Source: Heterodontus francisci (taxonomy: Eukaryota). Taken from it: DNA of 64,000 nt. The stretch spans positions 20,715,134-20,779,133 of the forward strand of contig NC_090404.1 of NCBI RefSeq assembly GCF_036365525.1, read 5' to 3'. Position numbers and translations under genes: made by a program. Below are positions 1,778 through 60,755 of this stretch, piece by piece; position 1 is the first letter of the stretch, and the number at the start of each line of letters is the position of its first letter. Under the pieces are notes generated by a model. That model was not told the DNA's origin. It worked only from the letters and a program-made list of their open reading frames with translations, and made no database searches.

Positions 1778-1847
1778 ATGCATGGATCGGCGAAAGGTCC
1801 TGTGTTTGCCATTTACTATCCCATCCTTGCAGCTATTGGGGTTCCAG
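1778..1847 (+). CDS. GPR139/GPR142-like GPCR gene 1, coding exon 1
   Basis: ATG...MHGSAKGPVFAIYYPILAAIGVP, then a G|GTAAAG donor (phase 1). Joins in frame to exon 2 at 13640, and resembles the GPR139 TM1 segment VYYSLLLCLGLP-A-N. Confidence 0.88.
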
Positions 1848-1944
1848 GTAAAGTATTATAGTTAGTTATACATTCTGGAAATCATTGTTTAGCTATGTCA
1901 CTGCTCTTAATAACAATTCATGCTTCTCCATGTTATGGATATCC

Positions 1945-2335
1945 AATCTCCCCTTTAAGGGGATAATTGCTGTACTTTAATGGGACGATTTCTTCTCTCC
2001 AATTTTTCTAATTTCATCTGTTTTACAGTATATTTTTTCCACTTAACGGTATTATTTCTTTATTTTAATGAAATAGTTTCTTGGAAATTTACTGACTTAA
2101 TTTTTTGATATTAATGTTTTAATTGCTCTCTTAAAGAAGTGTAATTAATGGTATACTTTCTTAAAATTAACAGTTTAATTTCTCCTGCATCCCAGTATCA
2201 CTTTCCACTTTGGCCACACAGCTTATCCCCTTCAGTGGTATCATCTTCCCATTAACCCACGTAATTTATCCTGTTTGAAAGGATAATTTAGTGCTTCTAA
2301 CTTTATAAGTTCTCCCCTTTACTTGTGCAATTTCA
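1945..2335. repeat. Degenerate ~22-bp AT-rich tandem array at the start of gene 1 intron
   Basis: Recurring ATAATTTCTTCCCCTTTAACNGT-like units; counterpart at 28670-28927. Confidence 0.55.
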
Positions 2336-2344
2336 CATTGTAAA

Positions 2345-2585
2345 TTGTAAATTCACATTGTGTTATTGACACTGTTATTGTGGGTGGATTATCACACAGT
2401 TATTACAGTTATCATAATGTGGCACGGTTATTGTGGGTGAATTGTCACACTGTTATTACTCTGCAATGTAGCTCTATTATGTTATTGCTACTGTCAATAG
2501 ATGATCACACTGTTAGCAGTTAGCAGTGTTAGCAGTTCTATTGTGTTATTGACACTGTTACGTGGGTGAATTATCACACTGTTAT
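2345..2585. repeat. ~67-bp intronic tandem array, 5' part
   Basis: Unit approx. TGTGTTATTGACACTGTTACTGTGGGTGAATTATCACACTGTTATCACAGTGTAAATGTAGTTCTAT; resumes at ~4445 after a CR1/SINE insertion. Confidence 0.8.
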
Positions 2586-3349
2586 AGGAACGTAGGAGCA
2601 GGAGTAGGCCATTCAGCCCATCGAGCCTTCCCACCATTCAATATGATCATGGTTAATCATCCACTTCAATGCCTTTTTCACACACTATCATCATATCACC
2701 TTATGTCATTTGTATTTAGAAATCTGTCAATCTCTGCTTTAAACATGCTCAATGACTGAGCTGCCACAGCCCTCTGGCGTAGAGAATTCCAAAGATTCAC
2801 AACCCTCTGAGTAAAGACATTTCTCCTCATCTCTGTCCTAAGTGGCTTCCCACTTATTTTGAAATTGTGTCCCCTTGTTCTAAGCTCCCCGCCCAGGGGA
2901 ACCATCTTAGCTGCATCTACCCTGTCTATCCCTTTAAGTATTTTGTAGGTTTCAATGAGATCACCTCTCATTCATCGCAACTCGAGAGAATACAGGCCCA
3001 ATTTACACAATCTCTCTTCATAGGACAGCCCCACCATCCTGGGAACATGTCTGGTGAACCTTCGTTGCACTCCCTCTATGGCAACGATATCCTTCCTAAG
3101 GTAAGGGGGCCGAAACTGCACACAGTACTCCAAGTGCGGCCTAACCAAGGTTCTAGACAATTGAAGAAAGACTTCACTACTCTTGTACTCAAATCCTCTT
3201 GCGATAAAGTCTAACATACCATTAGCCTTCCTAATTGCTTGCTGCACCTACATGTTAGCTTTCAGTGACTTATTGACGAGGGCACCCAGGGACAGGGAGG
3301 GAGGGACAGGGACACACAGGGGAACAAGGGAAGAGAGGCAACACCACAT

Positions 3350-3788
3350 GGGCGGCACAGTGGCGCAGTGGTTAGCACTACAGCCTCACAGCTCCAGGGA
3401 CCTGGGTTCGATTCTGGGTACTGCCTGTGTGGAGTTTGCAAGTTCTCCCTGTGTCTGCGTGGGTTTTCTCCGGGTGCTCCGGTTTCCTCCCACAAGCCAA
3501 AAGACTTGCAGGTTGGTAGGTAAATTGGCCATTATAAATTGTCACTAGAAGAGGTAGGTGGTAGGGAAATATAGGGACAGGTGGGGATGTTTGGTAGGAA
3601 TATGGGATTAGTGTAGGATTAGTATAAATGGGTCACAAACCACTGACCACCTCCAGGCGCGTATCCATTGTCTCTCGAGATAAGGAGGCCCAAAAAGAAA
3701 AGAAAAAAAAAAAAAGTATAAATGGGTGATTGATGGTCGGCACAGACTCGGTGGGCCGAAGGGCCTGTTTCAGTGCTGTATATCTAAT
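3350..3788 (+). mobile_element. HE1-like tRNA-derived SINE
   Basis: A-box TGGCGCAGTGG, B-box GGGTTCGATTC, central GGGTGCTCCGGTTTCCTCCCAC, and CR1-type tail GGGCCGAAGGGCCTGTTTC. Confidence 0.85.
3634..3714 (+). mobile_element. RTE LINE 3' tail inserted into the SINE
   Basis: Matches the 3' end of the RTE at 42099-42649; A-rich tail; 13-bp TSD AGTATAAATGGGT (3621-3633 and 3715-3727). Confidence 0.85.
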
Positions 3789-4444
3789 CTTTGTACAGCT
3801 ACACTTTATAATATCTTACCATTTACGAAGTACTCTGCACATCTCTTTCTCCTACCAAAGTGGATAACCTCACATTTATTCCACCTGCCACGTTCTTGTC
3901 CACTCACCAAGTCTGTCCAAATCCCTTGAAGCCGCTTTGCACCTTCCTCACAACATACATTCCCACCTAATTTTGTGTCACCCATGAACTTGGAAATATT
4001 ACATTTAACCCCATATCCAAAACAGCGGGGGCCCAAGCACTGATCCCTGCAGTACCCAACTAGTCACAGCCTGCCAACGCGAGAATGATCTGTTTAATCC
4101 GACTCTCTACATTTTACCTGTTAACCAATCCTGAATCCATGCCAGTATATTACCTCCTATCCCATGTGCTTTAATTTTGCTAACTAATCTCCTATGGGGG
4201 CCTTGATCAAAAGCCTTCTGAAAATCCAAGTACACCACGTCCACTGACTCCCTTTTATCAATTCTGTTAGTAACATCCTCAAAAACTCCAACAGTTTCGT
4301 CAAGCATGATTTCCCATTTTTAAATCCATGTTAACCATGCCCAATCAGATCATTATTATCCCAGTGTCCATTTATCACATCCGTCAGAATAGCTTCTAGC
4401 ATTTTACCAACGACTGATGTAAGGCCAACAGGTCTGTAGTAACT

Positions 4445-4885
4445 TGTTATCACAGTGTAAATGTAGATCTGTTGTGTTATTGACACTTACTGTGGGTTTA
4501 TTATCTCACTGTTTTCCTGGTGTAAATGTAGGTCTATTGTGTTCTTAACATTGTTACAGTGGGTGAATTGTCACACTGTTAGCACGGTGTAAATGTAGTT
4601 CTATTCTATTATTGACACTGTTACTGTGGGAGGCTTATCACACTATTATTACAGTGTAAATGTTGTTCTGTTATCTTCCCTGCGCTGTTACTGTGGGTGA
4701 ATTATCACACCGTTATCGCGGTGTAACTGGGGTCCTTCTGTGTTATTGGTACTGTTACCGTGCGTGAATTATCACAGAAATGTCACGGTGTAAATGCAGT
4801 TGTGTTGTGTTACCGGCACTGTTACTGTGGGTGACTTAATCTCTGTTACCATGGTGTACATCGAGTTCCACTGTGTTAATGTTAT
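4445..4885. repeat. ~67-bp intronic tandem array, 3' part
   Basis: About six more copies of the same 67-bp unit. Confidence 0.85.
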
Positions 4886-5067
4886 CGACAGTGGATGTCT
4901 GATTTGCACAAATGATTCACTGATTGAAATTATTCAACAAATAAATAATTACTGACGGAATTTAGTTATTAAATTCAGTGAAAGGGCATTATTAGCACCG
5001 AGTTGTTAACAGAAATATAGCAATGTGGCCGTTTTATGAATGGATCGATACTTATCCTAAACCCACA

Positions 5068-5994
5068 GGACTGGATTTTACGCAGGAGGGGGTGGGGGGA
5101 TAGCCCTGCATCTGCATTTCTGCTCCCCTCCCGCACCCCAGAGCGTGTTTCTTTCAAGTAAAGATTCACGAGCCAAGATCCCCGTCCCTTTAAAGACCAG
5201 GAGCCCATTGTCAGTAGTACAGAGGCTTCAGGTGGCAGTGCTGGAACACAGCACAAGAAGAGAAGTGGAGTTTGCACGTTCTCCCTGTGACTGCGTGGGT
5301 TTCCGTCGGGTGCTCCGGTTTCCTCCCACCGCCAAAGACTTGCAGGTTGATAGGAATATTGCCCTTAGTGTAGGTAGGTGGTAGGAGAGTGGTAGGGAAT
5401 ATGGGATTAATGTAGGATTAGTATAAATGGGTGGCTGTTGGTCGGCACAGACACGGTGGGCCGAAGGGCCTGTTTCAGTGCTGTATCTCTCTATGACTCT
5501 ATGACTCTATAAGAAGTAGGTGGGGTGGAGTCGCTGGGGCCAGTCTGTAAGGTCGCAGTGAGTGGACAAGGGGTGGTGGTCGTGAAGTCCAGGGGATGGT
5601 GTTTCCGTGGATAAACCTGTTCCTGGTGCTGGTCATCCGGGGGCCACAAATTGTCAATGGAGGAGGGCATCTCTTATCACGCAGAGAGGGCACCTCAGGT
5701 TACAAGGCGTCCTCCCCGCAAGATGAAGACCCCCTGCCACTGGCAAGATCCCAGTGGTGGATGGACCAGGCCCTTAATAGGCCATTAATAGGCCACTTAA
5801 AGCCTCAATTGGCCTCAGGGCAGGAAGGCTATCCCTGAAAATATAACTTGACAACGTGGAGGTGATGGGCCATCCGCTCTACTAGCCCCTGGCCACGCAT
5901 TGCAATACTCCATGCGCCCCTGCCCCTCCTCCCCCCCCCCCCCCCCCCCAACCCCCGCCTCACCCCCGTCTAAGGGGGCCATAAAATCCCGGAC
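5068..5994. mobile_element. Harbinger-type non-autonomous element (MITE) with a nested SINE fragment (~5250-5510)
   Basis: Ends GGACTGGATTTTA and ATAAAATCCCGGAC; 3-bp TSD ACA; the empty site is visible in the gene 2 intron (~29441-29470). Confidence 0.75.
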
Positions 5995-6723
5995 ACAGAG
6001 CGCAGTGTTTCTACTCTCAATCTCAAACTCGCACTGATTCAGCCCGGCTCCCCTTTTCCACATTAGCTGCTGCTAACTGTACTCCCGTGACCACCACTGA
6101 GTGCGAATGATCCTTCTGCTCTAAGCCCCTGGCAATGTCCTGGACTGTTCCCGCCTTTAGTCTTATCTCCATATTTATGAGTCTGCGTAACAGGTGGCAT
6201 CTTTCGCATGTGAGTAAAAAAAAAGTTTTAATTTCAATACCCACTATCGGACTAAGCTGATATAATCCTATTTAAATGCAATTTTTTCCTACTTTCCTGT
6301 TAGTTTCCACGTTGGTTGTTGGTTATTGTGGGCTGGATTTTGCAAGCATGCTGCTATGAGCAGTGGCGAGTACGCAAAATGTCAGCCATCCCACATTTGC
6401 AGCTGTGCTGCTGCAATTACACAGCAGGCAACCACGGACCATAATGACGACCATCATCCCCCACAATCACCTGGCAGAGCAGCATTGGCAATGACTTGAA
6501 TGATGTTGGATCAGCTAGTGGCACCGTCTTTAAAAGCCTGCCGACCCTGCATTTACTCTCCTTGCATTCAACACCAGTATTTGGCAGCAATACCTCTTGG
6601 GTTGGCCGTCAATTTTCATCTCAGCAAAAGCCCCCGTGCCACCCCCACCCACCACCCCCCCCCCCCACCACCACCCACCCCCCCCCCCCCCCCCCACCCC
6701 ACCGCCCGCGCATCATTGCAAAC

Positions 6724-6963
6724 ATGGCAGATGTAAAAGTAAGGGTGGTCCCATAGTTCAGTGATGTCTTCCTGCTGATTCTCCTGCAGGCTGCAAGGGA
6801 AAGGCGGCTGGGCCTCTTCCTCAGCGATGGCAAGAAGAGATCCTACCACCTGACCAAGCAAGCCGGGACAGAGACCGCAGAGGAGGTTAGCAGCCGTGGG
6901 ATCACCCAGCATGACTGGGTCCGGTGTAGGAAGAGGGTCACCGACCTCCTACACTCATCCAAG
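6724..6963 (+). pseudogene. Myb/SANT-like DNA-binding domain remnant (Harbinger accessory gene)
   Basis: MADVKVRVVP*FSDVFLLILLQAARERRLGLF...AEEVSSRGITQHDWVRCRKRVTDL, a trihelix Myb/SANT-like pattern with an in-frame stop. Ser/Pro-rich downstream pieces continue to ~11065. Confidence 0.75.
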
Positions 6964-7606
6964 ATAACTTGCGCAGTTCCAGATAGCTTGCTGTGATCTG
7001 CTTGCCCACAAGCATCAAGACTTACGGTTGTCACAGCCATTCAAATGATAGGAAGCTCACAGCATAATGATCGCAGATTACTGACTGCATAAGTGACACC
7101 AGTCTCCCTCGTTTCTATCGCAACCCAATTAAGATCCATGACAGATAGAGTCAATATGAGAGCAGCAACATCCACCAGGTGCAGAGGGACCCATGTTAGC
7201 ATTGATGTGCTGTGGAGACGTTTAGAACTTAAAAGTAACCGCATCCTTGATCTTACAGGAGAAGAAGGCCCCCAACAGCAGGGAGGCAGCCAGCACCAGT
7301 GGCAGGGTTCCCAACCTTCGACCTCTGTCTCAGGCTGAAGAAGTGGGGCTCCAGTTATCCAGGAGCCAAGGAGCATATGCCATATCGGACGTCGAGCTTG
7401 GGGTCCCACTTGAGGAGAGTGATTATTGACAAACACAGAATGAGCCAGAATTAGATTTTATGTAGAAATGCAATGCTGTCATCATTGTGACATGTGTACT
7501 ATAACACCTAACATCTGTACTTCACATTGTATCTTACAAATGCTTGCAGACACCAAGGAAACGATGGCAAACTCTGAGGATGAGTAACACTTCGATGCTG
7601 CACCGT

Positions 7607-10293
7607 TCCAGTAAGAACAGAGAAGTTGGTAAAAGAGGGGGGGGGGGGTGACATTGTTAATCAAGGAGAGTATTACGGCGGCAGAAAGGACGTTTGAGGA
7701 CTCGTCTACTGAGGTAGTATGGGCCGAGGTTAGAAACAGGAGAGGAGAGGTCACCCTGTTGGGAGTTTTCTATAGACCTCCGAATAGTTCCAGAGATGTA
7801 GAGGAAAGGATAGTGAAGATGATTCTCGACAGGAGCGAGAGTAACAGGGTACTTGTTATGGGGGACTTTAACTTTCCAAATATTGACTGGAAATACTATA
7901 GTTCAAGTACTTTAGATGGGTCAGTTTTTGTCCAGTGTGTGCAGGAGGGTTTTCTGACACAGTATGTAGACAGGCCAACCAGGGGCGATGCCACATTGGA
8001 TTTGGTACTGGGTAATGAACCCGGCCAGGTGTTAGATTTAGATGTAGGTAAGCACTTTGGTGATAATGATCACAATTCGGTTAGGTTTACCTTAGCGATG
8101 GGCAGGGACAGGTACATACCGCAGGGCAAGAATTATAGCTGGGGGAAAGGAAATTATGATGCGATTAGGCAAGATTTAGGATGCGTAGGATGGGGAAGGA
8201 AACTGCAGGGGATGGGCACAATCGAAATGTGGAGCTTATTCAAGGAGCAGCTACTGCGTGTCCTTGATAAGTATGTACCTGTCAGGCAGGGAGGAAGTCG
8301 TCGAGCGAGGGAGCCATGGTTTACTAAAGAAGTTGAAGCGCTTGTCAAGAGGAAGAAGAAGGCTTATGTTAGGATGAGACGTGAAGGCTCAGTTAGGGCG
8401 CTTGAGAGTTACAAGCTAGCCAGGAAGGATCTAAAGGGAGAGATAAGAAGAGCAAGGAGAGGACACGAGAAGTCATTGACGGATAGGATCAAGGAAAACC
8501 CTAACGCTTTCTATAGGTATATCAGGAATAAAAGAATGACTAGAGTTAGATTAGGGCCAATCAAGGATAGTAGTGGGAAGTTGTGTGTGGAATCAGAGGA
8601 GATAGGGGAAGCGTTAAATGAATATTTTTCGTCAGTATTTACAGTAGAGAAAGAAAATGTTGTCGAGGAGAATACTGAGATACAGACTACTAGGCTAGAT
8701 GGGATTAAGGTTCACAAGGAGGAGGTGTTAGCAATTTTGGAAAGTGTGAAAGTAGATAAGTCCCCTGGGCCAGATGGGATTTATCCTAGGATTCTCTGGG
8801 AAGCCAGGGAGGAGATTGCAGAGCCTTTGTCCTTGATCTTTATGTCGTCATTGTCGACAGGAATAGTGCCGGAAGACTGGAGGATAGCAAATGTTGTCCC
8901 CTTGTTCAAGAAGGGGAGTAGAGACAGCCCTGGTAATTATAGATCTGTGCGCCTTACTTCGGTTGTGGGTAAAATGTTGGAAAAGGTTATAAGAAATAGG
9001 ATTTATAATCATCTTGAAAAGAATAAGTTCATTAGCGATAGTCAGCACTGTTTTGTGAAGGGTAGGTCGTGCCTCACAAACCTTATTGAGTTTTTTGAGA
9101 AGGTGACCAGACAGATGGATGAGGGTAAAGCCGTGGATGTGGTGTATATGGATTTCAGTAAGGCGTTTGATAAGGTTCCCCACGGTAGGCTATTGCAGAA
9201 AATACGGAAGTATGGGATTGAAGGTGATTTAGTGCTTTGGATCAGAAATTGGCTAGCTGAAAGAAGACAGAGGGTGGTGGTTGATGGCAAATGTGCATCC
9301 TGGAGTTTAGTTACTAGTGGTGTACCGCAAGGATCTGTTTTGGGGCCTCTGCTGTTTGTCATTTTTATAAATGACCTGGATGAGGGTGTAGAAGGGTGGG
9401 TTAGTAAATTTGCGGATGACACTAAGGTCGGTGGAGTTGTGGATAGTGCCGAAGGATGTTGTAGGTTACAGAGGGACATAGATAGGCTGCAGAGCTGGGC
9501 TGAGAGATGGCAAATGGAGTTTAATGCGGAAAAGTGTGAGGTGATTCACTTTGGAAGGAGTAACAGCAATGCAGAGTACTGGGCTAATGGGAAGATTCTT
9601 GGTAGTGTAGATGAACAGAGAGATCTTGGTGTCCAGGTGCATAAATCCCTGAAGGTTGCTACCCAGGTTAATAGGGCTGTTAAGAAGGCATATGGTGTGT
9701 TAGCTTTTATTAGTAGGGGAATTGAGTTTCGGAGCCACGAGGTCATGCTGCAGCTGTACAAAACTCTGGTGCGGCCGCACCTGGAGTATTGCGTGCAATT
9801 CTGGTCACCGCATTATAGGAAGGATGTGGAAGCTTTGGAAAGGGTGCAGAGGAGATTTACTAGGATGTTGCCTGGTATGGAGGGAAGGTCTTATGAGGAA
9901 AGGCTGAGGGACTTGAGGTTGTTTTCGTTAGAGAGAAGGAGGAGGAGAGGTGACTTAATAGACACAGATAAGATAATCAGAGGGTTAGATAGGGTGGATA
10001 GTGAGAGTCTTTTTCCTCAGATGGTGATGGCAAACACGAGGGGACATAGCTTTAAGTTGAGGGGTGATAGATATAGGACAGATGTCAGAGGTAGTTTCTT
10101 TACTCAGAGAGTAGTAGGGGCGTGGAACGCCCTGCCTGCAACAGTAGAAGAATCGCCAACTTTAAGGGCATTTAAGTGGTCATTGGATAGACATATGGAT
10201 GAAAATGGAATAGTTTAGGTCAGATGGTTTCACAGGTCGGCGCAACATCGAGGGCCGAAGGGCCTGTACTGCGCTGTAATGTTCTATGTTCTA
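7607..10293 (+). mobile_element. 5'-truncated CR1 LINE nested in the Harbinger
   Basis: Contains the 856-aa ORF2; 3' tail GGGCCGAAGGGCCTGTAC...TTCTATGTTCTATG. Confidence 0.93.
7648..10218 (+). CDS. CR1 ORF2 (partial endonuclease + reverse transcriptase), uninterrupted frame
   Basis: Motifs GVFYRPP, MGDFNFP, DHN, KSPGPDG, DFSKAFDKV, GVPQGSVLGP, KFADDTK and RPHLEYC. Confidence 0.92.
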   Translation: MTLLIKESITAAERTFEDSSTEVVWAEVRNRRGEVTLLGVFYRPPNSSRDVEERIVKMILDRSESNRVLVMGDFNFPNIDWKYYSSSTLDGSVFVQCVQEGFLTQYVDRPTRGDATLDLVLGNEPGQVLDLDVGKHFGDNDHNSVRFTLAMGRDRYIPQGKNYSWGKGNYDAIRQDLGCVGWGRKLQGMGTIEMWSLFKEQLLRVLDKYVPVRQGGSRRAREPWFTKEVEALVKRKKKAYVRMRREGSVRALESYKLARKDLKGEIRRARRGHEKSLTDRIKENPNAFYRYIRNKRMTRVRLGPIKDSSGKLCVESEEIGEALNEYFSSVFTVEKENVVEENTEIQTTRLDGIKVHKEEVLAILESVKVDKSPGPDGIYPRILWEAREEIAEPLSLIFMSSLSTGIVPEDWRIANVVPLFKKGSRDSPGNYRSVRLTSVVGKMLEKVIRNRIYNHLEKNKFISDSQHCFVKGRSCLTNLIEFFEKVTRQMDEGKAVDVVYMDFSKAFDKVPHGRLLQKIRKYGIEGDLVLWIRNWLAERRQRVVVDGKCASWSLVTSGVPQGSVLGPLLFVIFINDLDEGVEGWVSKFADDTKVGGVVDSAEGCCRLQRDIDRLQSWAERWQMEFNAEKCEVIHFGRSNSNAEYWANGKILGSVDEQRDLGVQVHKSLKVATQVNRAVKKAYGVLAFISRGIEFRSHEVMLQLYKTLVRPHLEYCVQFWSPHYRKDVEALERVQRRFTRMLPGMEGRSYEERLRDLRLFSLERRRRRGDLIDTDKIIRGLDRVDSESLFPQMVMANTRGHSFKLRGDRYRTDVRGSFFTQRVVGAWNALPATVEESPTLRAFKWSLDRHMDENGIV

Positions 10294-11399
10294 TGACACT
10301 CCTGCACCTTCCACCAGTGCAGATACTCTAACCTCGGTGGGTATCCAATCAGCATTAGAATCAGGGTCACAAGCTGGCGATAGCCGAGACCTCTGACAGT
10401 CGGAGGACTGCATCTGTCCAGGCACCTGTTGAGCCCCAGGCTGATGATGAGCCTCTGGTGTCGACAGCACAGGGCATGAGGTAGTTACAGGGAGAGGTAA
10501 GGCAACATCTGGTGGAGATGCCAGAGGCCATGCGCAGCCATGAGTGGATGCTGGAGGTGTCCATCCATGCCATGACTGTGGCCATGTCCCAGGTATGTGA
10601 GTGAATGGCTTCATCCATCGAAAGATCGGCAACCTCAAGGAGAGCCACTTTCCACAGCTGCACCAAGACATGCAAGTCTTGCCTTGGCCATGACTTCAAT
10701 TCAGTAAGGGCAGGGTTGAGAGAAGGACCAGGAGCATGGACAGTGTTCCCACTCCTAGTCCTTCTCCCGAGAGCCGGGAGGTTCCAACGAGCCTTGAGAG
10801 GGAGGAGGGGAGGCTGCACTCCACATCTGTGGTCTCCCCTCAGGGCGATTCGAGTGTGAACACGGGCTCCTCAGCCCCTCCGCCAGTACGTCCAGCTCCA
10901 GTAGCCGCAACGCCTGAGGACAGTCCTGCAATGCTTCAGGAAGCCTTCAGGCAGTCGGGGTTCTCCAGGCCTCAGGCACCCAGCGGACGATCGCTGAAGT
11001 CACCCCAGGCAAAGAGGAATCCTGATCAGCAGCCTACCTCCAGTCCAGCTTCTATGGCAGAGTAAACGCCATGAATGAGAACCCACAAATGTATCGATGG
11101 CACACCTTGACACATAAGGGTATTCATGGATAAGACAGATATGTCATATTTACTTTAATTAAATGTGTTTTCCTGCCAATCATCAGCCTTGTCTGCAAAT
11201 CACATTCCGCCATCGAGTGCTTATGTGTCTTTCAATTACTTCACAAGTATTGACAAGGTGACCACTGACATCATCGGCATGCCAATATGCCTGATATTTA
11301 ATTGCAGGAATGATGTCACATGGGCAATGGCTCAGTTTGTTGCTGTCAGTCATGCTGGACAGACAGATGTAATGGAGGCAGAGTACTTGAGACTACATG

Positions 11400-12630
11400 C
11401 ATGATGGTGAGATTTGTTAGCAAATATTTTTCCAAAACTTTATGGATTGTGGAAACACGCAATTGTCAGTCTCTGCCTTGCCTCCCTTGCTCACTGTTCA
11501 CCATGTCCGGCCTTCATCGCTGTTCTCTGATTTCCCATGCGTGCTTGCCCTTGTGTGCCCGCTGTGACCTCTTTGTCAGAGGATGTCTCATGCTCCCGTA
11601 CTTCCTCATCTTGAAAGCCCCCCGCACCCCTCGTAGTGCAATGATGTGCAGAACGCAGCAGACTACAACAATGTGTACAACCCTGTCTGGGTCATATTGT
11701 AGGGCTCCACAAGATCTATTGAGACAGCAGGATTGTATCTTCAGCATACGAGTGGTTTGCTCGTTGGTTGCTCGGGGTGGAGCTAATGTAGGCATTGTAG
11801 CCGCTATTCAGCTTCATTGGTGTGGTTCCTCACGAGCGTCAAAAACCATGTCATCAACCTTTAGCCCAATAATCCACCCTGAAGGTGAGCAGGGGGATGG
11901 CAAAGCTGTGGCACCTGGGACTGGTGATGTATGTATCAGACATGGCAGCTGCCCGGGAGACAGGCACACACTTGTAAGAAGCGCTTTCTCTGGTCCCACA
12001 CTTGTTGGACATTGATCGAATGAAATCCCTTTCTGTTTTTTGGTGCGGGGGAGCCTTGATGCCTACATGTGTGTAGTTGATCGCACCTTGGACCTGTGGG
12101 AATCCTGCAATGGCCCTGAATTCAATGACCCTCTCGGCCTGACTCTCAGGGTCTGTCCTGTAGTGGACATGTCACCAACCCTCTTGAACAGAGCATCGGT
12201 CACCTCCTTGATGCAGCGTTGAGCTGCATATTGAGAAACCCCACACATGTCATCTATGGAACCTTGGAATGATCCAGAGGTTTAAAAGTGTGGGCCACAG
12301 TAATTTTGAGGGCCACAGGCATCGGGTGACCACCTAAACACATTGGCTGAAAATCATCATTCAGCAGTGCACAGAGTTGTGTGACAGCCTCTCTGGCACT
12401 GGTGCTCAGACATCTGTAGGAATGTCATCTGAGTCCTATAGTCTTGCTGGCGATCTGGGCTCCTCTTCGCCTTTGTGGCTGCTGCTGCTCACGTCTTGGA
12501 GCTTTCCCTCGAGCCACAACTGCCCATTGGACCTGCCTTTGGTAGAGATGGCTCATGACAGCAAGGGGATCGAGGAACACAGGGTGAATTATATCCATCT
12601 CTGTCCTCTTTGTAACTTCGGATTCCTTCA
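11400..12630 (-). pseudogene. Harbinger (HARBI1-like) DDE transposase remnant
   Basis: Minus ORF pieces CGVSQYAAQRCIKEVTDALF and CGALQYDPDRVVHIVVVCCVLH; frameshifted. Confidence 0.82.
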
Positions 12631-13639
12631 AAAGGACACGTACGCCTATCTGGGCAGAGACTTGCCTTAATGTCTGGTTCCACAGAATTCAGGCATGAGC
12701 TCTATGTTATGGCTTTATGTTGCCCTCACAACTTTTAAGTAAGTGCGAAGCACCATGACCATCAGAATAACATTTGAGTTGCCTGAACTGGACCTCCGAA
12801 AAAATCTTTAGTTTCCAAGTTCTGCCCCCCCCCCCATCCTACAACAGAGATCCCCTCTTTGCTCACATCTGAAGTTGCAATGTCTGATGTTAAAACAAAT
12901 TCAACAGTATAATTACGCATAACTAACCTACCCTTTGCAGGCACCAAAGACTCTCGCCTCAGTGACCCAATCTTTTCAAAGACTGGAAAGTGAAGGCACC
13001 TGGGTGCCGCACGTCACGCAAATGTGTTGGTCGGGTTGTGGCGAATTACATTATAATTAATGTAAAACGGTATTTAACATATTCCATGTACAGTCCCGTC
13101 ACAGAGCGACAGAGGCGCCGCCACGGAACTTCGCCGCCTCTGAGAAAATTGGAAACCACTATTACGGCTTCAGATTTCGTGGTGGATGAATCTGCACCGA
13201 TTCTCCAGCTCCCCGACCGCCATAGACCCGCCTTCAAATGGAGCACAAAATCCAACCCTGTATTATTTACCATCTGAAATATTTTCTGGAATATGTTACT
13301 GATGTTATTTTTCTTGTCTCTTTGATGTTCCCATTTTGGTTTCAATAGGTTTTCGATGCTATCTTTTTCTCCATCATGCTTTAATGTATTATTTTATATT
13401 CTGATATTATTGACCTGTCTTATTTTCAATCTGGGCGATTATATTAAACACAGAAGCAAGTGCACGGAGGTTAAGCAATCGTTTTCCACTCAGGACCATG
13501 TGTCAAAGCTATAAATTTCACACAGAATTCTGTAAAACGGATGATTTTGTTGGGAGTCGGACCAGTAACTTTCCTGTTCTCTCCAGCTCACAAACATGCA
13601 CTGTTCCTCTTTCTCTTTCTCCCTCTTCCTCTATTACAG

Positions 13640-14547
13640 CTAACTTGGCAGTGATTGTGATCCTGTCCCGAGGAAGATGCGGTCTCTCCAGATGTATCAC
13701 TTACTACCTGATGTCCATGGCAGTGACGGATCTCCTGATCATCATCACCGCTGTGATATTTAACCGGATTGTTGGTATTTATTTCCCAGGCAGTATCCTG
13801 TTCACCACACCCGTATGCAGTTTCCGTATTGCCCTAAATTATGTGATCATGGACAGTTCTGTCTGGTTAACGGTCACTTTCACCATTGATCGATTTGTGG
13901 CCATTTGCTGCCAGAAGCTGAAAATAAAATACTGCACCGAGAAAACAGCGGGACGGGTTATTGGAATCGTGCCTATAATGAGCTGTTTAAAATATACGTT
14001 CCAGTATTTTATATATGAACCTTTGTATATAATTAACGATATACCCTGGTTCTGCAAAATAAAATTAGCATTTTACACATCAAATGCATGGATTGCATAT
14101 GACTGGATTCGCCGCATTTTAAACCCTTGTCTCCCATTCATTCTGATTTTACTGCTCAATGCTCTGACCGTCAGACACATTCTCGCGGCCAGTGGAGCCC
14201 GCAGGAGACTCCGGGCTCACAGCAATGGAGAGACTCAGAGTGACCCAGAGATGGAGAGGCGGAGAAACTCCATCATTTTACTCTTCTGTATCTCGGGCAG
14301 TTTCGTCCTGTTATATCTGTTACGTCTTATAAATTTCCTTTTGGTCCGAATTGCGAAATTTAGTTATTTTTCTGGTACCAATTTCAGTGAATCAAATTAT
14401 ATTCTGGACCAAAGCGGATATATGTTTGAGCTTTTGAGTTCCTGTGTCAATCCGTTTATTTATGCAGGGACCCAGGGAAAATTCAGAGAGGAGTTACAGA
14501 ATGGAGTGAAATATGTACTGAGTCTAATTGTTAAATTGTTGAAATGA
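13640..14547 (+). CDS. GPR139/GPR142-like GPCR gene 1, coding exon 2 (spliced product 325 aa)
   Basis: Polypyrimidine tract and TACAG acceptor at 13639; motifs YLMSMAVTDLL, SVWLTVTFTIDRFVAIC, PCLPF and NPFIY; intact frame to TGA. Confidence 0.92.
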
Positions 14548-15175
14548 TGGGATAAGTAAAATCCAGCATGAATTACAGGTTATATTGCATCCATTGCTGT
14601 TCTTGTGCATTCACACACGGTCTCCCTCCCATAATCACTCGCTTTGAGATCGTTATCCATTGAGTGAATTTAAGAATGCATGATTCACCAATGCACAATT
14701 TAGTGCTGTGACATGTTCTCGTTTAGTTACCAGTTCCCTTCCCTGTGCTGACTCTAGCTTAATGCATTCCCTTCAGCCCCAGGGGCCCTGGAGTATATCT
14801 ACTTTCATATAGGAAACAGAGATTCCGACCTCTGATCTGTTATCAGATATCAATTTAAACTGTTCAATGAAGGGACATCAATATCCCTACTGAGAATGAT
14901 TTGGGTCTTAAGGATAGGATAGGCACTGAAATGGAATCGTGTAATGCCCCTATGCATTTGTCTCCAATCCATAGGCAACGCCTCACCGCCGCACTCTTGT
15001 GCCTATAAACATATGAGCAGAGCAAATGCCGGAGGAAAGAGCCGAAAACTAGTTCGCCTTTTTACATTTTTCATTGGCCAACTAGGACAACACCCCTGCG
15101 TCATCAAACAAAGTTAATTTATTTGAAAGAGTGCCCCCTTGTCCAAAGCGATGCAAACAATAAAGGCCCAAATCC

Positions 15176-18640: not shown

Positions 18641-19164
18641 GTAATATTGGAAAAACTGACCAAAAGCGTAGTTAAAGAAGTCTATTTTAAGAACAGCCTT
18701 AAAGGAACGGAGGGGGAGAGAGGTAAAGAGGCAGAGTGATTTAGGGAGAGAAGTTCAGAGCTCAGGTTGCAGACATCTGAAGGCACGCTCAACAGTGGCG
18801 AAGTGATTAAAATCCGAATGCACAAAAGGGCATGATTCAAGGAGTGCAGAAGTCTTGGAAGCCCAGTTGAGTCTCAGGCTCCTAGCTCATTAGAGCATTT
18901 CCCCTGGTCAATCAGTGGCTCCTTCCCTCCTCCCCTCGCCCTATGTTTCCAACTAACTCCTAACTCGATCATCCTGTGTTCCCTAACATTTATGGGCACC
19001 GAGGCTCCAGTTGCCACTTCTAAAATGATTTACTGTATTTATCATGCCTTTTAAATTCCGCCAATCCTTGCATTTCCAGTTCTGACTGCATGAATCACGC
19101 TAATAGTTCTGAACCACCAATCCCGAGAGTGGACGTCCATGGTGAAGAGGCAATTAGGGCCAGA

Positions 19165-19262
19165 AAACTGAGATCCGTCACTGCCATGAACACCAGGTAC
19201 CAAGTGATATATCTGAAGAGACCACAACTTCCTCGGGACAGGATCACAATTGCTGCGATGCT
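19165..19262 (-). pseudogene. Inverted relic of a GPR139-like exon 2 start
   Basis: Minus strand reads SIAAIVILSRGSCGLFRYITWYLVFMAVTDL after a pyrimidine tract and CAG; homology ends after TDL. Confidence 0.82.
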
Positions 19263-21129
19263 CTGCGCAAAAAGGAGTAAAAAATTGAAATTACAATTTA
19301 GACTGCCATCGAGAGTCTTAGTTAGACCGGACTTGGTACAATACTTGTAAGATTACTGTTTGTACAAATGATCCTGCCCAATCGGCACAGATTTACTCAG
19401 TAAAGAAAGTTTGTCACCAAAAGACTTTCTACGTTTGATTTGAAGTTACAACCCGTTAAATTAGATTCTAAAAAGGAAAGAGAACGAAAGTACAGAAGAT
19501 ATTTAAACAAAAAATTAATCGATACATAACCTTAACATTAAATTGACTGAAAATTAGGGCTCGCCCTTTTAGAACAGAGGAGAATTTTTTCTCTCTCAGT
19601 GGGTTGTGTGACTTTGGAATTCTCTGCCTCAGAAGGTGGTGGAAGCGGGGTCATTGAATATTTTTTAAGGCGGGGGTGAATAGATTCTTGTCAGGCAAGG
19701 GAATCAAAGATTATCGGGGGTAAATGGGAGTGCGGAATTCGAGACAGAAACTGAAACATAGAAGGTGATCTTATTAAATGGCAGAGCAGGCTCGACGGGC
19801 TGAATGATTCTCCTAATCCGTATGGTATATTTAAAATCAACATGAAACTTATTATATTATATGAAACAGAGTGAGATGGGCTGCCATTTACACTTTGGGA
19901 GAATCACAAAGTGGCTCTCACACGGATTGACTCTGATTACAAATATTGGGAACTCGGTAAATGGTGCAGCCATTCTTCCAGTGTGCGTTGCAAAAGACAA
20001 TGAAGTAATTGACCAGTAATATGTATGTTTCTGGTACAGCCTGAGTGTCCAATATTGGCAAAGATAGAACTTCCAGCCGTTCCTCCACAAGGGACTGGGG
20101 CACTGTGTCAGGTATCTCAGTAAGGACGGCAATTCCCACAAGGAACACCCAGTGACAGCAGGAGATGGTCTTATGACATGCGGGATAGATGGTAAGGGAC
20201 TATTAGGGTGAATCATGTACCCAGAACAGGAAACGCAGCAAATGGCAGAATTTAAAAGGTATGATAAATGCTGTAAATCATTTTGGAAGTGGCGACTGGA
20301 GCCTCTGTGTCCATAAGGGATGATGAACTGTCGGTTTGAATTTGGATTTCAGCATCCACGGGATGATTGAGTTAGGAATTGAGTTAGGGCGAGGGGAGGA
20401 GGGGAGGAGCCACTGATTGACCAGTTCCAGTAATCAGACAGAGGGACTGCTCCGATCTGAAGTTGGAACCCGATACTCAAGCAGGATAGAGTTATAAAAT
20501 GTGCAACATCGAAGGTGATCTTTTGGCCCACATTATGCCCAAGCTGATTCTTTGGGAGAGCAATCCAGTAAGTCCTACTCACTTACCTTTTCCCTTAAGC
20601 CATGCAGTTTTGTTTTCAAATTCAAACACTTAAACTTTTCCTTTAGGGAGTTACTACTGAATCTGCTTCTACCACCCTTTCAGGCAGTGCATTCTAGATC
20701 ACCAATAATGCACTACATAAAACAAGTCTCTTAAAATCCCTTTCGGTCCTGTTGCCCATTGCAATGAATATATGTCCCCTGGTTCTTGATTTTGAATTTG
20801 TCAATTAACGCCACCCTCAACCTTCTCTTCTCTAAGGTGAACCACCCAAACTTGTCTGGTTTATTAAGATAATTGAAGCCCCATATTCTTTATTTATATT
20901 GCATGGTTCATCATTTATTGAGTTCTTGCTTTAAAACTGCCCTGAACAGCCGCCCTGCAGCCACTACTCGCCTTGCTATACTCCACTTCCATCTTTGCAC
21001 ATTGTTGCATACAATCTAATCCCTTATTTCACCACTACCCAGAGATGTTTATCCCAACAGCATCACACAAATAAACAAAATCAAATAGAAATGAAATAGA
21101 AGTTGGGAATTGAAAAGCAAACAAAATGC

Positions 21130-28300: not shown

Positions 28301-28478
28301 TCTCTGGGTATTTCACAATAGAGCTGTGTCAGAGCCCTTGAAAAATATTCCATTCCATCAAAACATCAACATGAGATTGGCAGCAGCTTCACTAATCTGT
28401 TTGCTTCAATTAGTGCAGATAATGTAAAAGATCAAGCCATCTAATTATTTCCCTCGAGCCTGACATCAGGTATAAATA
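28301..28478 (+). promoter_or_regulatory. Putative proximal promoter of GPCR gene 2
   Basis: TATAAATA at 28471-28478; CTAATTATTTCCCTCGAG at 28441-28458; TGACA at 28461; CAATTAG at 28407; collinear with the gene 1 promoter. Confidence 0.65.
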
Positions 28479-28527: not shown

Positions 28528-28597
28528 ATGCACGTATCACCAACCGGCCTGGTGTTTGCCATTTACTATCCTGTCCTTGCGGCTATCGGGGTTCCAG
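28528..28597 (+). CDS. GPR139/GPR142-like GPCR gene 2, coding exon 1
   Basis: MHVSPTGLVFAIYYPVLAAIGVP followed by a G|GTAAAG donor; 70 bp, as in gene 1. Confidence 0.9.
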
Positions 28598-28927: not shown

Positions 28928-28929
28928 AG

Positions 28930-49659: not shown

Positions 49660-50381
49660 CATGACCTGTCATAGATGATGGGTTTGGAAAGTGGGGATTG
49701 TTAATGCAGTGGCAAACATAATGAAAATGCGAGTACTGGGGTAATGGATGTAATACTGTAGCATTCAACAACGAAACAAATGAACACAAAATATATGCAG
49801 ACAACACAGGTGAAAGATGTAAGCCTGGATAGCCTTCTGCCACCCGCCGCTGTTCAGAGAGATGTCCCCACATGATAACTTGGCCACGGTCATGTGCATG
49901 CAGACTATAATCTCTATCACCATTGACCTGTAAAAGGGCAGCAGCAGGTGAGACCAACAGACACTAAAGTTTGTGGCGCAGAGAATGAAGTGGCTCCTTA
50001 TTAGAGTTTTTGATGTTATTATGGTTGAGTATCACAGTGGATTGCAAATCTTGATCATTATCCATGATACATAAAGTTATAAACTCCCCTTTCAGAAGGT
50101 TGTGCACGAAGTTCTTTACAGCTTCTATAAGAAATGATTTTTTTTTTGCTGGTACTGTTATATTGGCTGATATATTCGGCACACTAACTATGATGCGACA
50201 AATATCCAGTGGCACCAGTATACGGATTAACACGTAATATGCTGGCACCATTACCAACAATCACAGTAATATAAGCGGATAAAATTTGAGATGTAAAAGA
50301 GATATAAGTATTGACTGGAACCAGTAAAACTGGACGGAGGAAACCCAGCCAACGACAGTCTGTGAGATTGGTGACAGTCAT
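49660..50381 (-). pseudogene. Olfactory receptor (OR) pseudogene
   Basis: In order on the minus strand: MTVTNLT (N-glycosylation site), AYITVIVGN, PAYYVL...DI...VP, ICNPL*YSTIIT, CMHMTVAKLSCGDISLN, KA...HL and KPIIY. Frameshifts, a stop and a TM5 deletion; splice acceptor just upstream (50427-50428). Confidence 0.85.
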
Positions 50382-50689
50382 GGTCTAGGGAGAAAATGAT
50401 CAAGTTCATCTCCGAGAGAAGAGAATCTGTAAAAGAGAAGCAGTGCCAGTAAGTGCGAAGAGACTGATTCCATCCTCACCTCACTCCCCCTTCACAACAA
50501 TGTGTCTCTTTTACAAGTGGGTGGGCTTTGGTCGAGATGTTGAAGGTCACAATATGTATTAGTTTGGTTCAGTGGTAACTGTCCAGTATTTTAATCGGGC
50601 AAATGTAACTTCGATCCACCTGCAGAATTAAATTGGATCAGATAGCGGCTGATAGCCCATTGCAGTACCCAGGAAGATGTCTCATAGGC

Positions 50690-57118: not shown

Positions 57119-57119
57119 A

Positions 57120-57570: not shown

Positions 57571-57859
57571 AGCTTTATTCTGGGAAATCATATGAATAAT
57601 TCAAACCTCTGAGGTGTGGCCGCTACAAACACAGTGTCTCCATCAAGAAATTCAAAGAGGTACCCTTTGATTAGAGTCTTCACACTTCCTATTATGACCT
57701 TCCTAAATAAACATGGGCCACCCTTTTATTTTAACCTCCCTAGATTTGTTAGCCAGCTTCTCAAATCAGTTGTTTTAATTTGTCTTGCATTAAAAAAAAA
57801 ACAATTCCCAAATTAAAAGTTACCTTTGGACAATTAATCCAACCATGAACGAGGTGATT

Positions 57860-58356
57860 GTAACAGCCTGGATAGGTGCAGCTCCAGCAGGACTCAAGAA
57901 GCTAGGCACCATCAGGACAAAGTAGCCCGCTTGATTTGCACCCCATCTACGACTTTAAACATTCACTCCATCTACCACCAGAGTAAATGGCAGCATTGTG
58001 TCCCATATGCAAGATGCACTGCAGCAACGTGCCAAGTCTCCTTTGAAAGCACCTTCCAAACATGCGACCTCTGCCAATGAAAAGACTAATGCCAACAGTT
58101 GAATGGAAAAGCAACCACATACAATTCTTCCTCCAAGACACCATCCTGACATGGAACTAAAGCGCTGCTCCATCACTGTCGCCGGGTCAAAATCCTGGAA
58201 CTCCCTTCCTGGCAGCATTCTGGGTGTACCTACAACAGATGAACTGCAGTGGTTCGAGATGGAAGCTCACTGCCACCTTCTCCATGGCAATTAGAGATGG
58301 GCAATAAATGCTGGTTTTGCCAGTGATGCTCACAACTCATGAAAGAATAAGAAAAA
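57860..58356 (+). mobile_element. Second LINE family, 3' fragment (more diverged)
   Basis: Same 3' sequence and GGGCAATAAATGCTGG tail. Confidence 0.8.
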
Positions 58357-58555
58357 TGTCCTTTCCTGATGGCCCATAGCACGTCGTGGATGTCCAATTC
58401 TGAGTTTCTAGATCTGTTAGTGGGACAGTGAGAGTGCCATAGATTACAATGTAACCTGCCATCTGTATGAAGACGTGACTTGGTCTTTATGAAGACAGTG
58501 CAGTGACCATTCGTACCAATGCTATCTTGTACAGATGCATCTAGGACAGGCATTA

Positions 58556-59591
58556 GGATTTTTCCGAATGGCAGGCAGTGACGAGTGGGGCACCACAGGG
58601 ATCGGTGCTGGGACCCCAGCTATTCACAATATATATTAATGATTTAGATGAGGGAACTAAATATAATATCTCCAAATTTGCAGATGACACAAAACTGGGT
58701 TGGAGGGTGAGTTGTGAGGAGGATGCAGAGAGGCTTCAGGGTGATTTGGAAAAGTTGAGTGAGCGGGCAAATGCATGGCAAATGCAGTATAATGTGGATA
58801 AATGTGAGGTTATCCACTTTGGTAGAAAAAACAGGAAGGCAGATTATTACCTGAACGCCTTTAAACTGAGAGAGGGGAATATGCAACGAGACCTGGGTGT
58901 CCTCGTACACCAGTCACTGAAGGTAAGCATGCAGGTGGAACAGGCGGTAAAAAAGGCAAATGGTACTTTGGCAAGAGGATTCGAGTACAGGAGCAGGGAC
59001 GTCTTGCTGCAATTATACAGGGACTTGGTGAGGCCACACCTGGAATATTGTGTGCAGTTTTAGTCTCCTTATCTGACGAAGGATATTCTTGCTATAGAGG
59101 GAGTGCAGTGAAGGTTTACCAGACTGATTCCTGGGATGGCAGGAGTGACATATGAGGAGAGATTGAGTCGGTTAGGATTATATTCGCTGGAGTTCAGAAG
59201 AGTGAGGGGGGATCTCATAGAAACCTATAAAATTCTAACAGGACTTGACAGGGTAGATGCAGGAAGGATGTTCCCGATGGTGGGGGAGTCCAGAACCAGG
59301 GGTCATAGTCTAAGGATACGGGGTACACCTTTCAGGACTGTGATCAGGAGAAATTACTTCACCAAGAGAGTGGTGAGCCTGTGGAATTCGCTAACACAGA
59401 AAGCAGTTGAGGCCAAAACATTGTATGTTTTCAAGAAGGAGTTAGATATAGCTCTTGGGGTGAAAGGGATCAAAGGATATAGGGGGAAAGTGGTAACAGG
59501 TTACTGAGTTGGATGATCAGCCATGATCGTAATGAATGGCGCAGCAGTCTCGAAGGGCCGAATGGCCTACTCTTGTTCCTATTTTCTATGA
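58556..59591 (+). mobile_element. 5'-truncated CR1
   Basis: GAPQGSVLGP, KFADDTK, RPHLEYCVQF and the CR1 3' UTR. Confidence 0.9.
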
Positions 59592-60685
59592 TGAGGACGA
59601 TGTTTTTAATCCCCTTGAGCTGTTTCATTCACTGCCTACCACAAGCGCAGGCTGGCAGCTATGTCCTTCAGCACTTGGCCAGCTCAGTCATTGGTGATAC
59701 TAATGAGCCACTCTTTGTGATGGACATTTATGTCCCCTACTCAGAATATAGTCTAAGCTTGTACTCTATTTAGTGCTTCGCCTAAGTGATTTGAGCATTC
59801 GATGTACAGGTTTATCAGCTGAATAAAGGCAGTAGGTGATAATTAGCAGGAAGTTTCCTTGTTCATGTTTGCAATGCAGCCATGAACTGTTAAGGGGTAC
59901 ATCACCAACATTAAATATTGTCAGGGTCTCTATCCCCTGACTGGATCCCGCTGTATGCACATATCTGTGCTATTGGTGGACAGGAGTTATCCAAGGGTGG
60001 TGTTGGGAGATTTTGGAATGTAGACTGATACGAATGATTCTGAGTGTATGGATATATAAAGCAGTTGCTGAACTAGTCTGAGACAGCATTCCCAACTATA
60101 GTGCCAGTCCTCAGATGTTGGTGTGGAGGGATTTGCAGCATCGGCTGTGCCTGGGTTAGTATTTGTTGTCTCTGCATTCAATGCCTAGTTTGCAGCCCAT
60201 TAAATCCATCGTATTTATGCTTTTATTCATTTCTAGCTGATTGATACAGCTGACTGTTTCTTCTCGGCCACTTCAGAGGGCAGTTAAGAGTCAACTGAAG
60301 TGGTGTGGAATTGGAGTCACATCTGGGCGACACCAGATAAGAACGGCAGGTTTTATTCCATAAAGAAAATAAATTTCCCTTTAAAACTCTTTGGCATCTA
60401 TGTTTATCCATCCTATTGCTGCAGAAGTGAAGGTAAAATCAACTGCACTAACTTGTTTGCTCAGTGACTGTAAGTAACATTAATTGTGAAGTAACTTAAT
60501 CTATTTGTTTACTGACTGTATCTTAAAGGTGCTATCACTTAACATGTTTGTTCTGTGACTGTAACTAACATTAATGGTGATGTCATCTAATTGGAGGTTT
60601 AGAATCGGGTATAATTGAGGATCCTTTGAATACCGAACAGTGCTTGTGTGGAATGCCAAACAGACATCACTGCATCTCAAAGAAA

Positions 60686-60755
60686 ATGCACGCCCCATCC
60701 AGAGGCCTAGCGTATGCCATTTACTACACTGCCCTTGCAGCTATCGCTGTTCCAG
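60686..60755 (+). CDS. GPR139/GPR142-like GPCR gene 3, coding exon 1 (exon 2 not in window)
   Basis: MHAPSRGLAYAIYYTALAAIAVP followed by a G|GTAAA donor; same 70-bp length and GAAATGCA-like start context as genes 1 and 2. Confidence 0.85.

Follow-up and report, generated by a model that had tools for sequence, protein, structure and literature searches.

The window analysed here, a 64-kb stretch of Heterodontus francisci DNA, carries two intact two-exon genes (A and B) coding for class A (rhodopsin-like) GPCRs of 325 and 326 aa, whose spliced proteins are 76% identical. The genes and the degraded elements around them are:

1778..1847, + strand: gene A exon 1; 70 bp, all coding, for a very short N-terminus and the first half of TM1; GT donor in phase 1
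7633..10218, + strand: LINE-like open frame of 861 aa in the gene A intron; endonuclease and reverse-transcriptase-like motifs by eye
13640..14547, + strand: gene A exon 2; remainder of the 7TM receptor, spliced product 325 aa
15173..15292 (about), + strand: exon-2 relic 1; TM2 fragment followed by a stop; profile iE 2e-13
19161..19268 (about), − strand: exon-2 relic 2; inverted TM1-TM2 fragment; profile iE 3e-10
28528..28597, + strand: gene B exon 1; 70 bp; same junction in RefSeq XP_067870062.1
30478..31388, + strand: gene B exon 2; spliced product 326 aa
49849..50061 (about), − strand: class-I-like OR pseudogene, best-matching part (TM3-ECL2); Pfam 7tm_4
60686..60755, + strand: gene C exon 1; 70 bp

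Each of the three exon 1s runs from the ATG to (G/A)VP plus a G and is followed by GTAAA; the best 70-mer in the window after them reaches 36/70 matches. The first-pass annotation described three co-oriented paralogs with an identical exon 1: the three + strand exons of 70 bp are indeed present, but they are alike in length and phase rather than in sequence (56/70 and 49/70 bases shared with the first), and the third paralog consists of exon 1 only, its exon 2 being absent from the last 3.2 kb of the window. The proposed phase-1 intron at (G/A)VP|A and the two complete receptors both stand, with intact spliced frames and GT-AG introns of 11,792 bp in gene A and 1,880 bp in gene B, the junction of the latter being identical in the RefSeq model (XP_067870062.1; P0001). 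The two introns share several colinear blocks, that of gene A being enlarged by repeats, and this colinearity supports the pairing of its exon 1 with its exon 2. The spliced structure was preferred over a single-exon model of gene A (P0046) that takes its N-terminus from the intron; likewise, the RefSeq C-terminal extension of gene B was rejected, as both extra pieces (31946-32044 and 33179-33412) lie downstream of the stop. Both proteins match Pfam 7tm_1 (E 2e-21 and 6e-21) and not 7tm_4, the AlphaFold model has seven helices and helix 8 (mean pLDDT 83.5), and C83, R108 and C162 are near-invariant in the family, in line with the class A hallmarks of DRY and NPxxY motifs and a cysteine pair linking TM3 and ECL2.

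The two exon-2 relics noted earlier are genuine by profile, but they are mere TM1-TM2 scraps of ~110 bp, one of them inverted, and no more than these two short relics came to light in the 64 kb. The OR pseudogene was also borne out: it spans roughly 49.7-50.4 kb with stops and frameshifts, matches 7tm_4 at E 4.1e-5 (under the gathering cut-off) and has the consensus OR52/OR51 structures as its top PDB matches (E 3.5e-6). It came from a Pfam scan of 150 of the 1044 open frames of at least 35 aa, picked mostly by hydrophobicity, so that further weak relics in the window may be missed; an OR motif scan of the window returned noise only.

Extent and affinities of the family

A family search over 4327 candidates recovered 1944 proteins at E<=0.001, with 110 clusters at 50% identity and E<=1e-30. 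Paralogs from H. francisci make up 84 of the best 120 matches, 61 of them on the window's own 59.5-Mb sequence and 10, 9, 2 and 2 on four other large sequences; the clustered, multi-copy family that had been proposed runs to far more than a few copies. Of 20 high-scoring representatives whose names were checked, 19 are shark, skate, ray or chimaera proteins. Divergent members are spread over sharks, batoids and a chimaera, and salamanders add one cluster. This is a large receptor family of sharks, rays and chimaeras that has so far only been named by machine ("probable GPR139"): a full-text literature search, with most subscription papers outside its scope, returned no paper describing it, and neither 12 of 24 whale shark supplementary files nor a catshark cartilage supplement gave a match. 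None of 47 standard N-termini carries a glycosylation sequon.

The receptors are under purifying selection, with dN/dS between genes A and B at 0.36 (bootstrap 0.25-0.51). The window is 48% self-similar, mostly through repeats, and together with the relics this could be read as passive, repeat-driven amplification of a gene of little function; however, the upper bound of 0.51 on dN/dS, the intact frames, the conserved promoter and the persistence of the family across sharks, batoids and a chimaera largely refute such a reading, leaving it with a negligible probability.

The family's affinities point to the GPR139/GPR142 group in its wide sense, within which GPR139 appears to be the nearest characterised receptor: a profile of 32 members finds it as the best PDB match (E 4.7e-23; next 3.8e-18). 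The earlier label "GPR139-like" holds in this sense but is a distant one, with identity to human GPR139 of about a quarter (67 identities over 283 query residues) and the TRH receptor (TRHR) ranking first, above GPR139, in single-sequence searches with exon 2 alone. Foldseek against the PDB is non-discriminating: many class A receptors, mostly those for peptides, score alike at E 7e-10 to 6e-9, and GPR139 comes third. Known GPR139 orthologs are single-copy and 70-96% conserved across bony vertebrates, and the catshark has a separate true GPR139 (81% to mouse) and GPR142 (59% to mouse); orthology with GPR139 was rejected on the ~25% identity, this separate ortholog, the 84 clusters in one species and the loss of the pocket. 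The short N-terminus is shared with GPR139 and GPR142, and GPR139 also has two exons, with an intron that may lie at the same TM1 position; the shark family differs from both in being multi-copy and in not keeping the pocket and P6.50.

In a tree built without true GPR139/GPR142 (searches for these gave amphioxus and two weak matches only), the family groups with the salamander sequences (100/98), with a coelacanth/teleost clade as sister (88/77). This clade (P0236, P0242, P0258), the nearest outgroup at 32% identity, we take by its taxon range to be GPR210-like, GPR210A/B being orphans of coelacanth, gar and teleosts that lie near GPR139/142 (Rinne et al. 2019, PMC6504862); the main text of that study does not mention "shark". 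Alternative models of the salamander, coelacanth and amphioxus relatives split exactly at the TM1 G-x-P|A junction, which would place the intron of the GPR210-like clade where the shark family has it. Unlike the shark family, the GPR210-like sequences form a clade of their own (100/100) in which the pocket is conserved, R6.51 included, and no expansion is seen among them.

A diversified pocket and its possible ligands

The ligand pocket is diversified among paralogs while the cytoplasmic face is conserved. Among 43 horn-shark paralogs, 29 pocket positions set by generic numbering average 1.09 bits against 0.46 for the 153 other TM positions (permutation p 1e-4) and 0.66 for the 59 non-pocket positions of the extracellular half (p 0.002), with the intracellular half at 0.33 bits. 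A control of three coelacanth/teleost/other GPR210-like orthologs has the opposite trend (0.36 vs 0.61). In a deep set of 21 members, the comparison with non-pocket extracellular positions is borderline for residues (p 0.057) and stronger by residue class (p 0.013). A hypervariable pocket marks any ligand-diversified family, immune ones included.

GPR139 binds Trp/Phe through E3x32, F3x33, H5x43, W6x48, R6x51 and N7x38 (PMC7318219). The first-pass annotation argued from GPR139 to amino-acid sensing, and amplified aromatic amino-acid sensors of that type would fit the PDB match along with an aromatic residue at 3.33 in 39/43 paralogs (Phe 5, Tyr 34) and His at 5.42 in 23/43. Against this, E3.32 is kept in one paralog, R6.51 in three, N7.39 in none and W6.48 in four (38 more have Tyr there); since the Trp/Phe pocket is not kept, identity is about a quarter and the catshark has the true GPR139 and GPR142 besides, that argument fails and such sensors are highly improbable.

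The model's ECL2 is a beta-hairpin of peptide-receptor type and Asp at 3.37 is specific to the family, which suggests peptides or cationic/polar molecules as ligands. The hairpin, together with the mostly peptide-receptor fold matches, is also what receptors for endogenous or sexually transferred peptides would have, in a neuro-endocrine or reproductive role like that of the protostome MIP/sex-peptide, FMRFamide and myosuppressin receptors; aromatic amidated peptides are the ligands of the protostome sister clade (PMC8557429), and there is precedent in the ~450-gene FMRFamide-receptor-like expansion of Lymnaea (PMC11589774). Receptors with a fixed endogenous ligand, however, retain their pocket, as in the ortholog controls, and at least 100 re-tuned paralogs would need a matching expansion of peptides, of which we found no report, making this role rather improbable.

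Candidate olfactory-type promoters

Upstream of the exon 1s lie the following elements:

1692..1709, + strand: gene A candidate Lhx2/Ebf composite; homeodomain core 1692-1697, O/E (EBF)-like site 1700-1709
1721..1727, + strand: gene A TATA box, 57 bp ahead of the ATG
28442..28459, + strand: gene B candidate composite; homeodomain core and O/E-like site, spacing and position (-86) as in gene A
28471..28477, + strand: gene B TATA box, upstream of exon 1
60588..60616, + strand: gene C promoter; homeodomain core and TATA-like box, the core without an adjoining O/E half

In genes A and B, the homeodomain core and an EBF-like 10-mer at offset 8 sit at -86, in the orientation and offset of the EMSA-validated Lhx2/Ebf probe from a mouse OR enhancer (PMC5608512 supplement 7). 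The EBF-like match is 6/8; at that score or better the 64-kb window has no further offset-8 composite, though 6/8 is reached elsewhere in it at offsets 6, 7, 9 and 11. The composite was first spotted by eye and the initial pattern fitted to it, while a retest used the published probe's offset; its chance in a shuffled 200-bp promoter is ~0.001, or 0.007-0.008 for any offset of 6-12. Identity between A and B is higher in the proximal 100 bp (86%) than in exon 1 (80%) or the distal flank (71%). As the two genes are homologous, their promoters amount to about one observation; homeodomain and candidate O/E sites near the TSS occur in two of the window's three promoters, the two not being independent. 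In a further paralog (P0039, a mis-extended model) the translated read-through is compatible with the same motif and TATA box. The motifs enriched in OR promoters are O/E, homeodomain and TATA sites (PMC3247239), and their candidate counterparts here lend new support to a chemoreceptor role.

EBF factors are also active in B cells and many neurons. The site could accordingly serve B-lineage or other non-neural expression of an immune or barrier-tissue repertoire, i.e., sensors of leukocyte chemoattractants or microbial peptides like FPRs or MRGPRs. An expanded, tandemly clustered family with a variable pocket would equally suit immune GPCRs, the absence of MAS1-related receptors from cartilaginous fishes (PMC8455134) leaves such a role open, and most catshark OR genes peak outside the nose, e.g., in the spleen (PMC11979771). 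We nevertheless regard it as unlikely, the EBF-like site being coupled to a homeodomain core in the register of the olfactory enhancer probe. The same repertoire signature might alternatively belong to chemosensory cells outside the nose—taste buds, solitary chemosensory cells, gut, or trigeminal/DRG neurons—considering that GPR142 is a nutrient sensor of gut and pancreas (PMC7318219) and that a DRG marker table lists a skate gene annotated as probable GPR139. That gene, a candidate family member, is in 1.5% of cells (adjusted p 1), its authors' own check saw "little or no expression", and the promoter motif is olfactory in type, so that a non-nasal site is also rather improbable.

An overlooked chemoreceptor repertoire?

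We favor, at a probability of roughly one half, the reading that these genes are an undescribed chemoreceptor repertoire, probably olfactory. The repertoire-like behavior suggested earlier has gained from the size of the tandem family, purifying selection, the diversified pocket and the candidate OR-type motifs. The genes belong to a chondrichthyan-wide expansion of an orphan class A GPCR that is kept as one cluster in salamanders; within the GPR139/GPR142 group it would be a third vertebrate branch, its whole two-exon unit and promoter having been multiplied by tandem duplication. The conserved cytoplasmic face would provide common signalling and the pocket, re-tuned per paralog, would admit different ligands, likely water-borne peptides or small cationic/polar molecules and not specifically Trp/Phe; Lhx2/Ebf-type factors might turn each gene on in only part of the olfactory sensory neurons, yielding a combinatorial odorant repertoire alongside the V2Rs.

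Somewhat short of even odds is the fuller proposal that the olfactory receptor families of cartilaginous fishes include a fifth, so far overlooked and outnumbering their V2R repertoire. It would have arisen as a peptide receptor of the GPR139/142 group gained an Lhx2/Ebf-driven OR-type promoter, and expanded where ORs decayed, as the OR pseudogene inside the cluster may indicate. Surveys of shark chemoreception count OR, TAAR, V1R and V2R only, and take the small repertoire to mean sensitivity traded for discrimination; for the catshark they give 34 V2R/OlfC genes and between 4 and 9 for each of the other families. Two observations weigh against an olfactory role: the catshark studies, which examined the four canonical families, conclude that V2Rs are the main olfactory one (PMC10116579, PMC11979771), and no GPCR of any family is among the top 50 genes of a brain and olfactory epithelium library. 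If olfactory, a family with no fewer than 84 distinct members in a single shark would overturn that receptor count and remove the apparent contradiction between a keen nose and only a few dozen known receptors. A vertebrate chemoreceptor family would then have originated independently, out of a peptide-receptor lineage. In an immune or endocrine role, the family is still a major GPCR expansion, as yet uncharacterised, in a lineage that has been called GPCR-poor.

Parallels might be struck with two sets of known systems. Among protostomes, the FMRFamide-receptor-like genes of Lymnaea (PMC11589774) and nematode Srw belong to the same wider group and expanded in tandem in independent lineages. 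FMRFamide-receptor-like and Srw-bearing clusters are the family's neighbors in the atlas. Nematode Srw receptors are chemoreceptors, and rodent vomeronasal FPRs provide a precedent for co-option. The vertebrate olfactory families (OR, TAAR, V1R/ORA and V2R/OlfC) resemble the shark family in their large tandem clusters, relics and variable pocket with a conserved cytoplasmic face, as well as in the short N-terminus and a promoter with homeodomain, O/E and TATA elements, here present as candidate sites. The shark receptors are nevertheless unrelated to them in sequence, have a coding intron in TM1 and lack the N-terminal sequon; membership of the OR family itself was rejected on this intron and the absence of Pfam 7tm_4.

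Genes and relics in the window

The receptor cluster of the horn shark window comprises two intact two-exon class A GPCR genes (A and B), a third exon 1 (C) and several relics, positioned as follows.

Features of the cluster (window positions)
1778, 70 bp, + strand: exon 1 of gene A, from ATG to (G/A)VP plus one base, then a GT donor
28528, 70 bp, + strand: exon 1 of gene B, with the same limits and donor
60686, 70 bp, + strand: exon 1 of gene C, with the same limits and donor
15173-15292, + strand: exon-2 relic, a TM1-TM2 scrap
19161-19268, - strand: exon-2 relic, a TM1-TM2 scrap
~49700-50400, - strand: olfactory receptor (OR) pseudogene, class-I-like (OR51/52), 7tm_4 E 4.1e-5

The first-pass annotation had described three co-oriented paralogs with an identical 70-bp exon 1. 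Length, ending and donor are indeed common to the three, but B and C match A at 56 and 49 bases respectively (A itself 70 of 70; best background 70-mer in the window 36), so that the exons are alike in structure and not in sequence; furthermore, no exon 2 of gene C was found inside the window. The two complete receptors were borne out: splicing to acceptors at 13640 (A) and 30478 (B) gives proteins of 325 and 326 aa that are 76% identical and both match Pfam 7tm_1, and the AlphaFold model of the database protein of gene B shows seven helices plus helix 8, with a beta-hairpin in ECL2. That H. francisci RefSeq protein (XP_067870062.1, P0001) is spliced at the gene B exon junction, and the additional C-terminal pieces it carries match the window at 100%; we rejected this tail as spurious, and likewise the single-exon database model of gene A (P0046) as mis-built. 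Horn shark family models often are, the standard exon junction being absent in 32 of 84, which hints at scant transcript support in the annotation tissues.

A (~470-15173) and B (~26945-37407) share colinear blocks in promoter, intron and 3' flank; hence the whole unit was duplicated, and repeats later stretched it. A degenerate 67-bp tandem repeat early in both introns (2333-2585, 4445-4884, 28924-29292) was inherited with the duplication, and a short-period degenerate repeat lies upstream of both promoters (470-1300 in A; 26945-27611 in B, period ~34 bp). Much of the 11.8-kb intron of gene A is a LINE-like 861-aa open frame (7633-10218) and a weak DDE_Tnp_4 transposase remnant (~10300-12000, E 0.01). 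Both exon-2 relics and the OR pseudogene of the earlier annotation are present, the latter with consensus OR52 and OR51 as top PDB matches. This class-I-like pseudogene lies within the cluster, even though only 2 canonical ORs are reported in catshark; the site of the cluster may once have been an OR locus. A weak integrase core (rve) match (48329-48571, E 0.013), an LTR-retrotransposon-like remnant, adjoins the pseudogene.

A cartilaginous-fish expansion distinct from GPR139

With exon 2 of gene B as query, 1944 proteins among 4327 candidates matched at E<=0.001. The best 120 of these comprise 119 that are chondrichthyan by name and one encoded in the window; a hand tally of the same 120 yields 84 horn shark proteins, a lower bound for the species, of which 61 lie on the window's 59.5-Mb sequence and the other 23 are spread over four further sequences. 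The earlier observation was largely right, but the family is much bigger than had been stated. Clustering at 50% left 110 representatives at E<=1e-30, and of 20 high scorers that were checked, 19 carry shark, skate, ray or Callorhinchus names. In a midpoint-rooted tree of 48 rows, composed without true GPR139/GPR142 proteins, a single salamander cluster (33% identity, family loop motifs present) groups with the shark family at 100/98, the coelacanth/teleost orphan clade ("GPR210-like", so named from taxon range only) is sister at 88/77, and amphioxus comes next. The salamander members (P0227, P0271, P0274) represent one conserved member, which resembles the GPR139-type pocket at K6.51, N7.39 and P6.50, and may reflect the ancestral state before the expansion. 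In a sub-clade (P0146, P0169, P0197, P0247, P0251, P0254) with two Stegostoma-named members, the N-termini are longer, contain repeats of W-N-V-T-T-like units and for the most part carry N-glycosylation sequons, unlike the unglycosylated 23-residue N-terminus of the window genes.

The GPR139-like label stands only in a wide sense. A PDB search with exon 2 alone ranks the TRH receptor above GPR139, whereas a 32-member family profile puts GPR139 at the top (E 4.7e-23, against 3.8e-18 for the runner-up), which upholds the wide grouping. Orthology fails: gene B and human GPR139 share about a quarter of their residues, and catshark has separate GPR139 and GPR142 genes, 81.3% and 58.7% identical to mouse in supplement rows of PMC13200729. 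We compared the six Trp/Phe pocket residues of GPR139, as given in PMC7318219, with 43 full-length horn shark paralogs (A, B and those 41 of 84 database models that are 320-330 aa long and begin with the standard 23-residue N-terminus). E3.32 is found in 1/43, R6.51 in 3/43, N7.39 in 0/43, F3.33 in 5/43 (Tyr in 34/43), W6.48 in 4/43 (Tyr in 38/43) and H5.42 in 23/43; P6.50 is kept in 5/43. Amphioxus, salamander and coelacanth relatives retain R/K6.51; the shark family instead has Asp3.37 (34/43 paralogs, 18/21 deep representatives). With the Trp/Phe pocket mostly lost, the ligand argument from GPR139 fails, and with it the earlier amino-acid rationale; that these are amplified Trp/Phe sensors is very improbable.

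Pocket diversity, promoters and a candidate olfactory repertoire

Genes A and B are under purifying selection, with a dN/dS of 0.36 (bootstrap 0.25-0.51). Across the 43 paralogs, the 29 positions which we take to form the pocket, assigned by generic class A numbering, have a mean entropy of 1.09 bits versus 0.46 in the rest of the TM region (p 1e-4) and 0.66 at non-pocket positions of the extracellular half (p 0.002), with the reverse pattern in a small control of three GPR210-like orthologs. Neutral amplification has a negligible probability in our estimate; receptors for endogenous peptides are an unlikely alternative reading of such a family.

Both A and B have a TATA box 57 bp upstream of the ATG and a homeodomain core at -86, followed by an O/E-like site. 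OR promoters are enriched in O/E, homeodomain and TATA sites (PMC3247239), and an Lhx2/Ebf composite is described from mouse OR enhancers by Monahan et al. (PMC5608512), whose EMSA composite probe (supplement 7), in our own alignment, has the orientation of A/B with the EBF 10-mer likewise at offset 8 from the TAAT start. Between A and B, the proximal 100 bp are 86% identical, compared with 80% for exon 1 and 71% for the distal flank. At this fixed offset and with at least 6/8 bases of what we presume to be the EBF consensus, the 64 kb contain two sites, both at the A and B promoters (0.69 expected in window shuffles; chance ~0.001 per shuffled 200-bp promoter), the motif having been noticed by eye before the test was set and A and B not being independent. 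The gene C promoter lacks the O/E half, and the mis-extended model of another paralog (P0039) reads through a stretch compatible with the composite motif and TATA. Further homeodomain and EBF-like juxtapositions at offsets 6-7, far from any exon 1 (47713-47729, - strand; 49378-49395), are probably chance. EBF factors are not nose-specific and act in B cells; an immune repertoire is a somewhat better candidate than endogenous-peptide receptors, though still doubtful.

A chemosensory role, backed by promoter anatomy, is plausible. We give roughly even odds (about 0.5) to an olfactory repertoire in which, as we infer, Lhx2/Ebf-type factors would activate each gene in a fraction of the olfactory neurons, the conserved cytoplasmic face would carry signalling, and the re-tuned pocket would suit each paralog to different ligands carried by water, with peptides or small cationic/polar compounds the probable kinds. 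Against this stand catshark studies (PMC10116579, PMC11979771) in which V2Rs emerge as the main olfactory family, although these concern canonical families alone. One gene in a skate DRG table is named probable GPR139 and is expressed scarcely or not at all; a chemosensory repertoire outside the nose is about as unlikely as receptors for endogenous peptides.

The family genes bear automatic names only, and a full-text literature search, which is not proof as most subscription papers lie outside its coverage, found no description of this expansion. Tandem GPCR repertoires that resemble those of chemoreceptors are a known kind of system, but the present family of this lineage appears not to have been described before. 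The rodent FPRs are a case of co-option, and the nematode Srw proteins are chemoreceptors.
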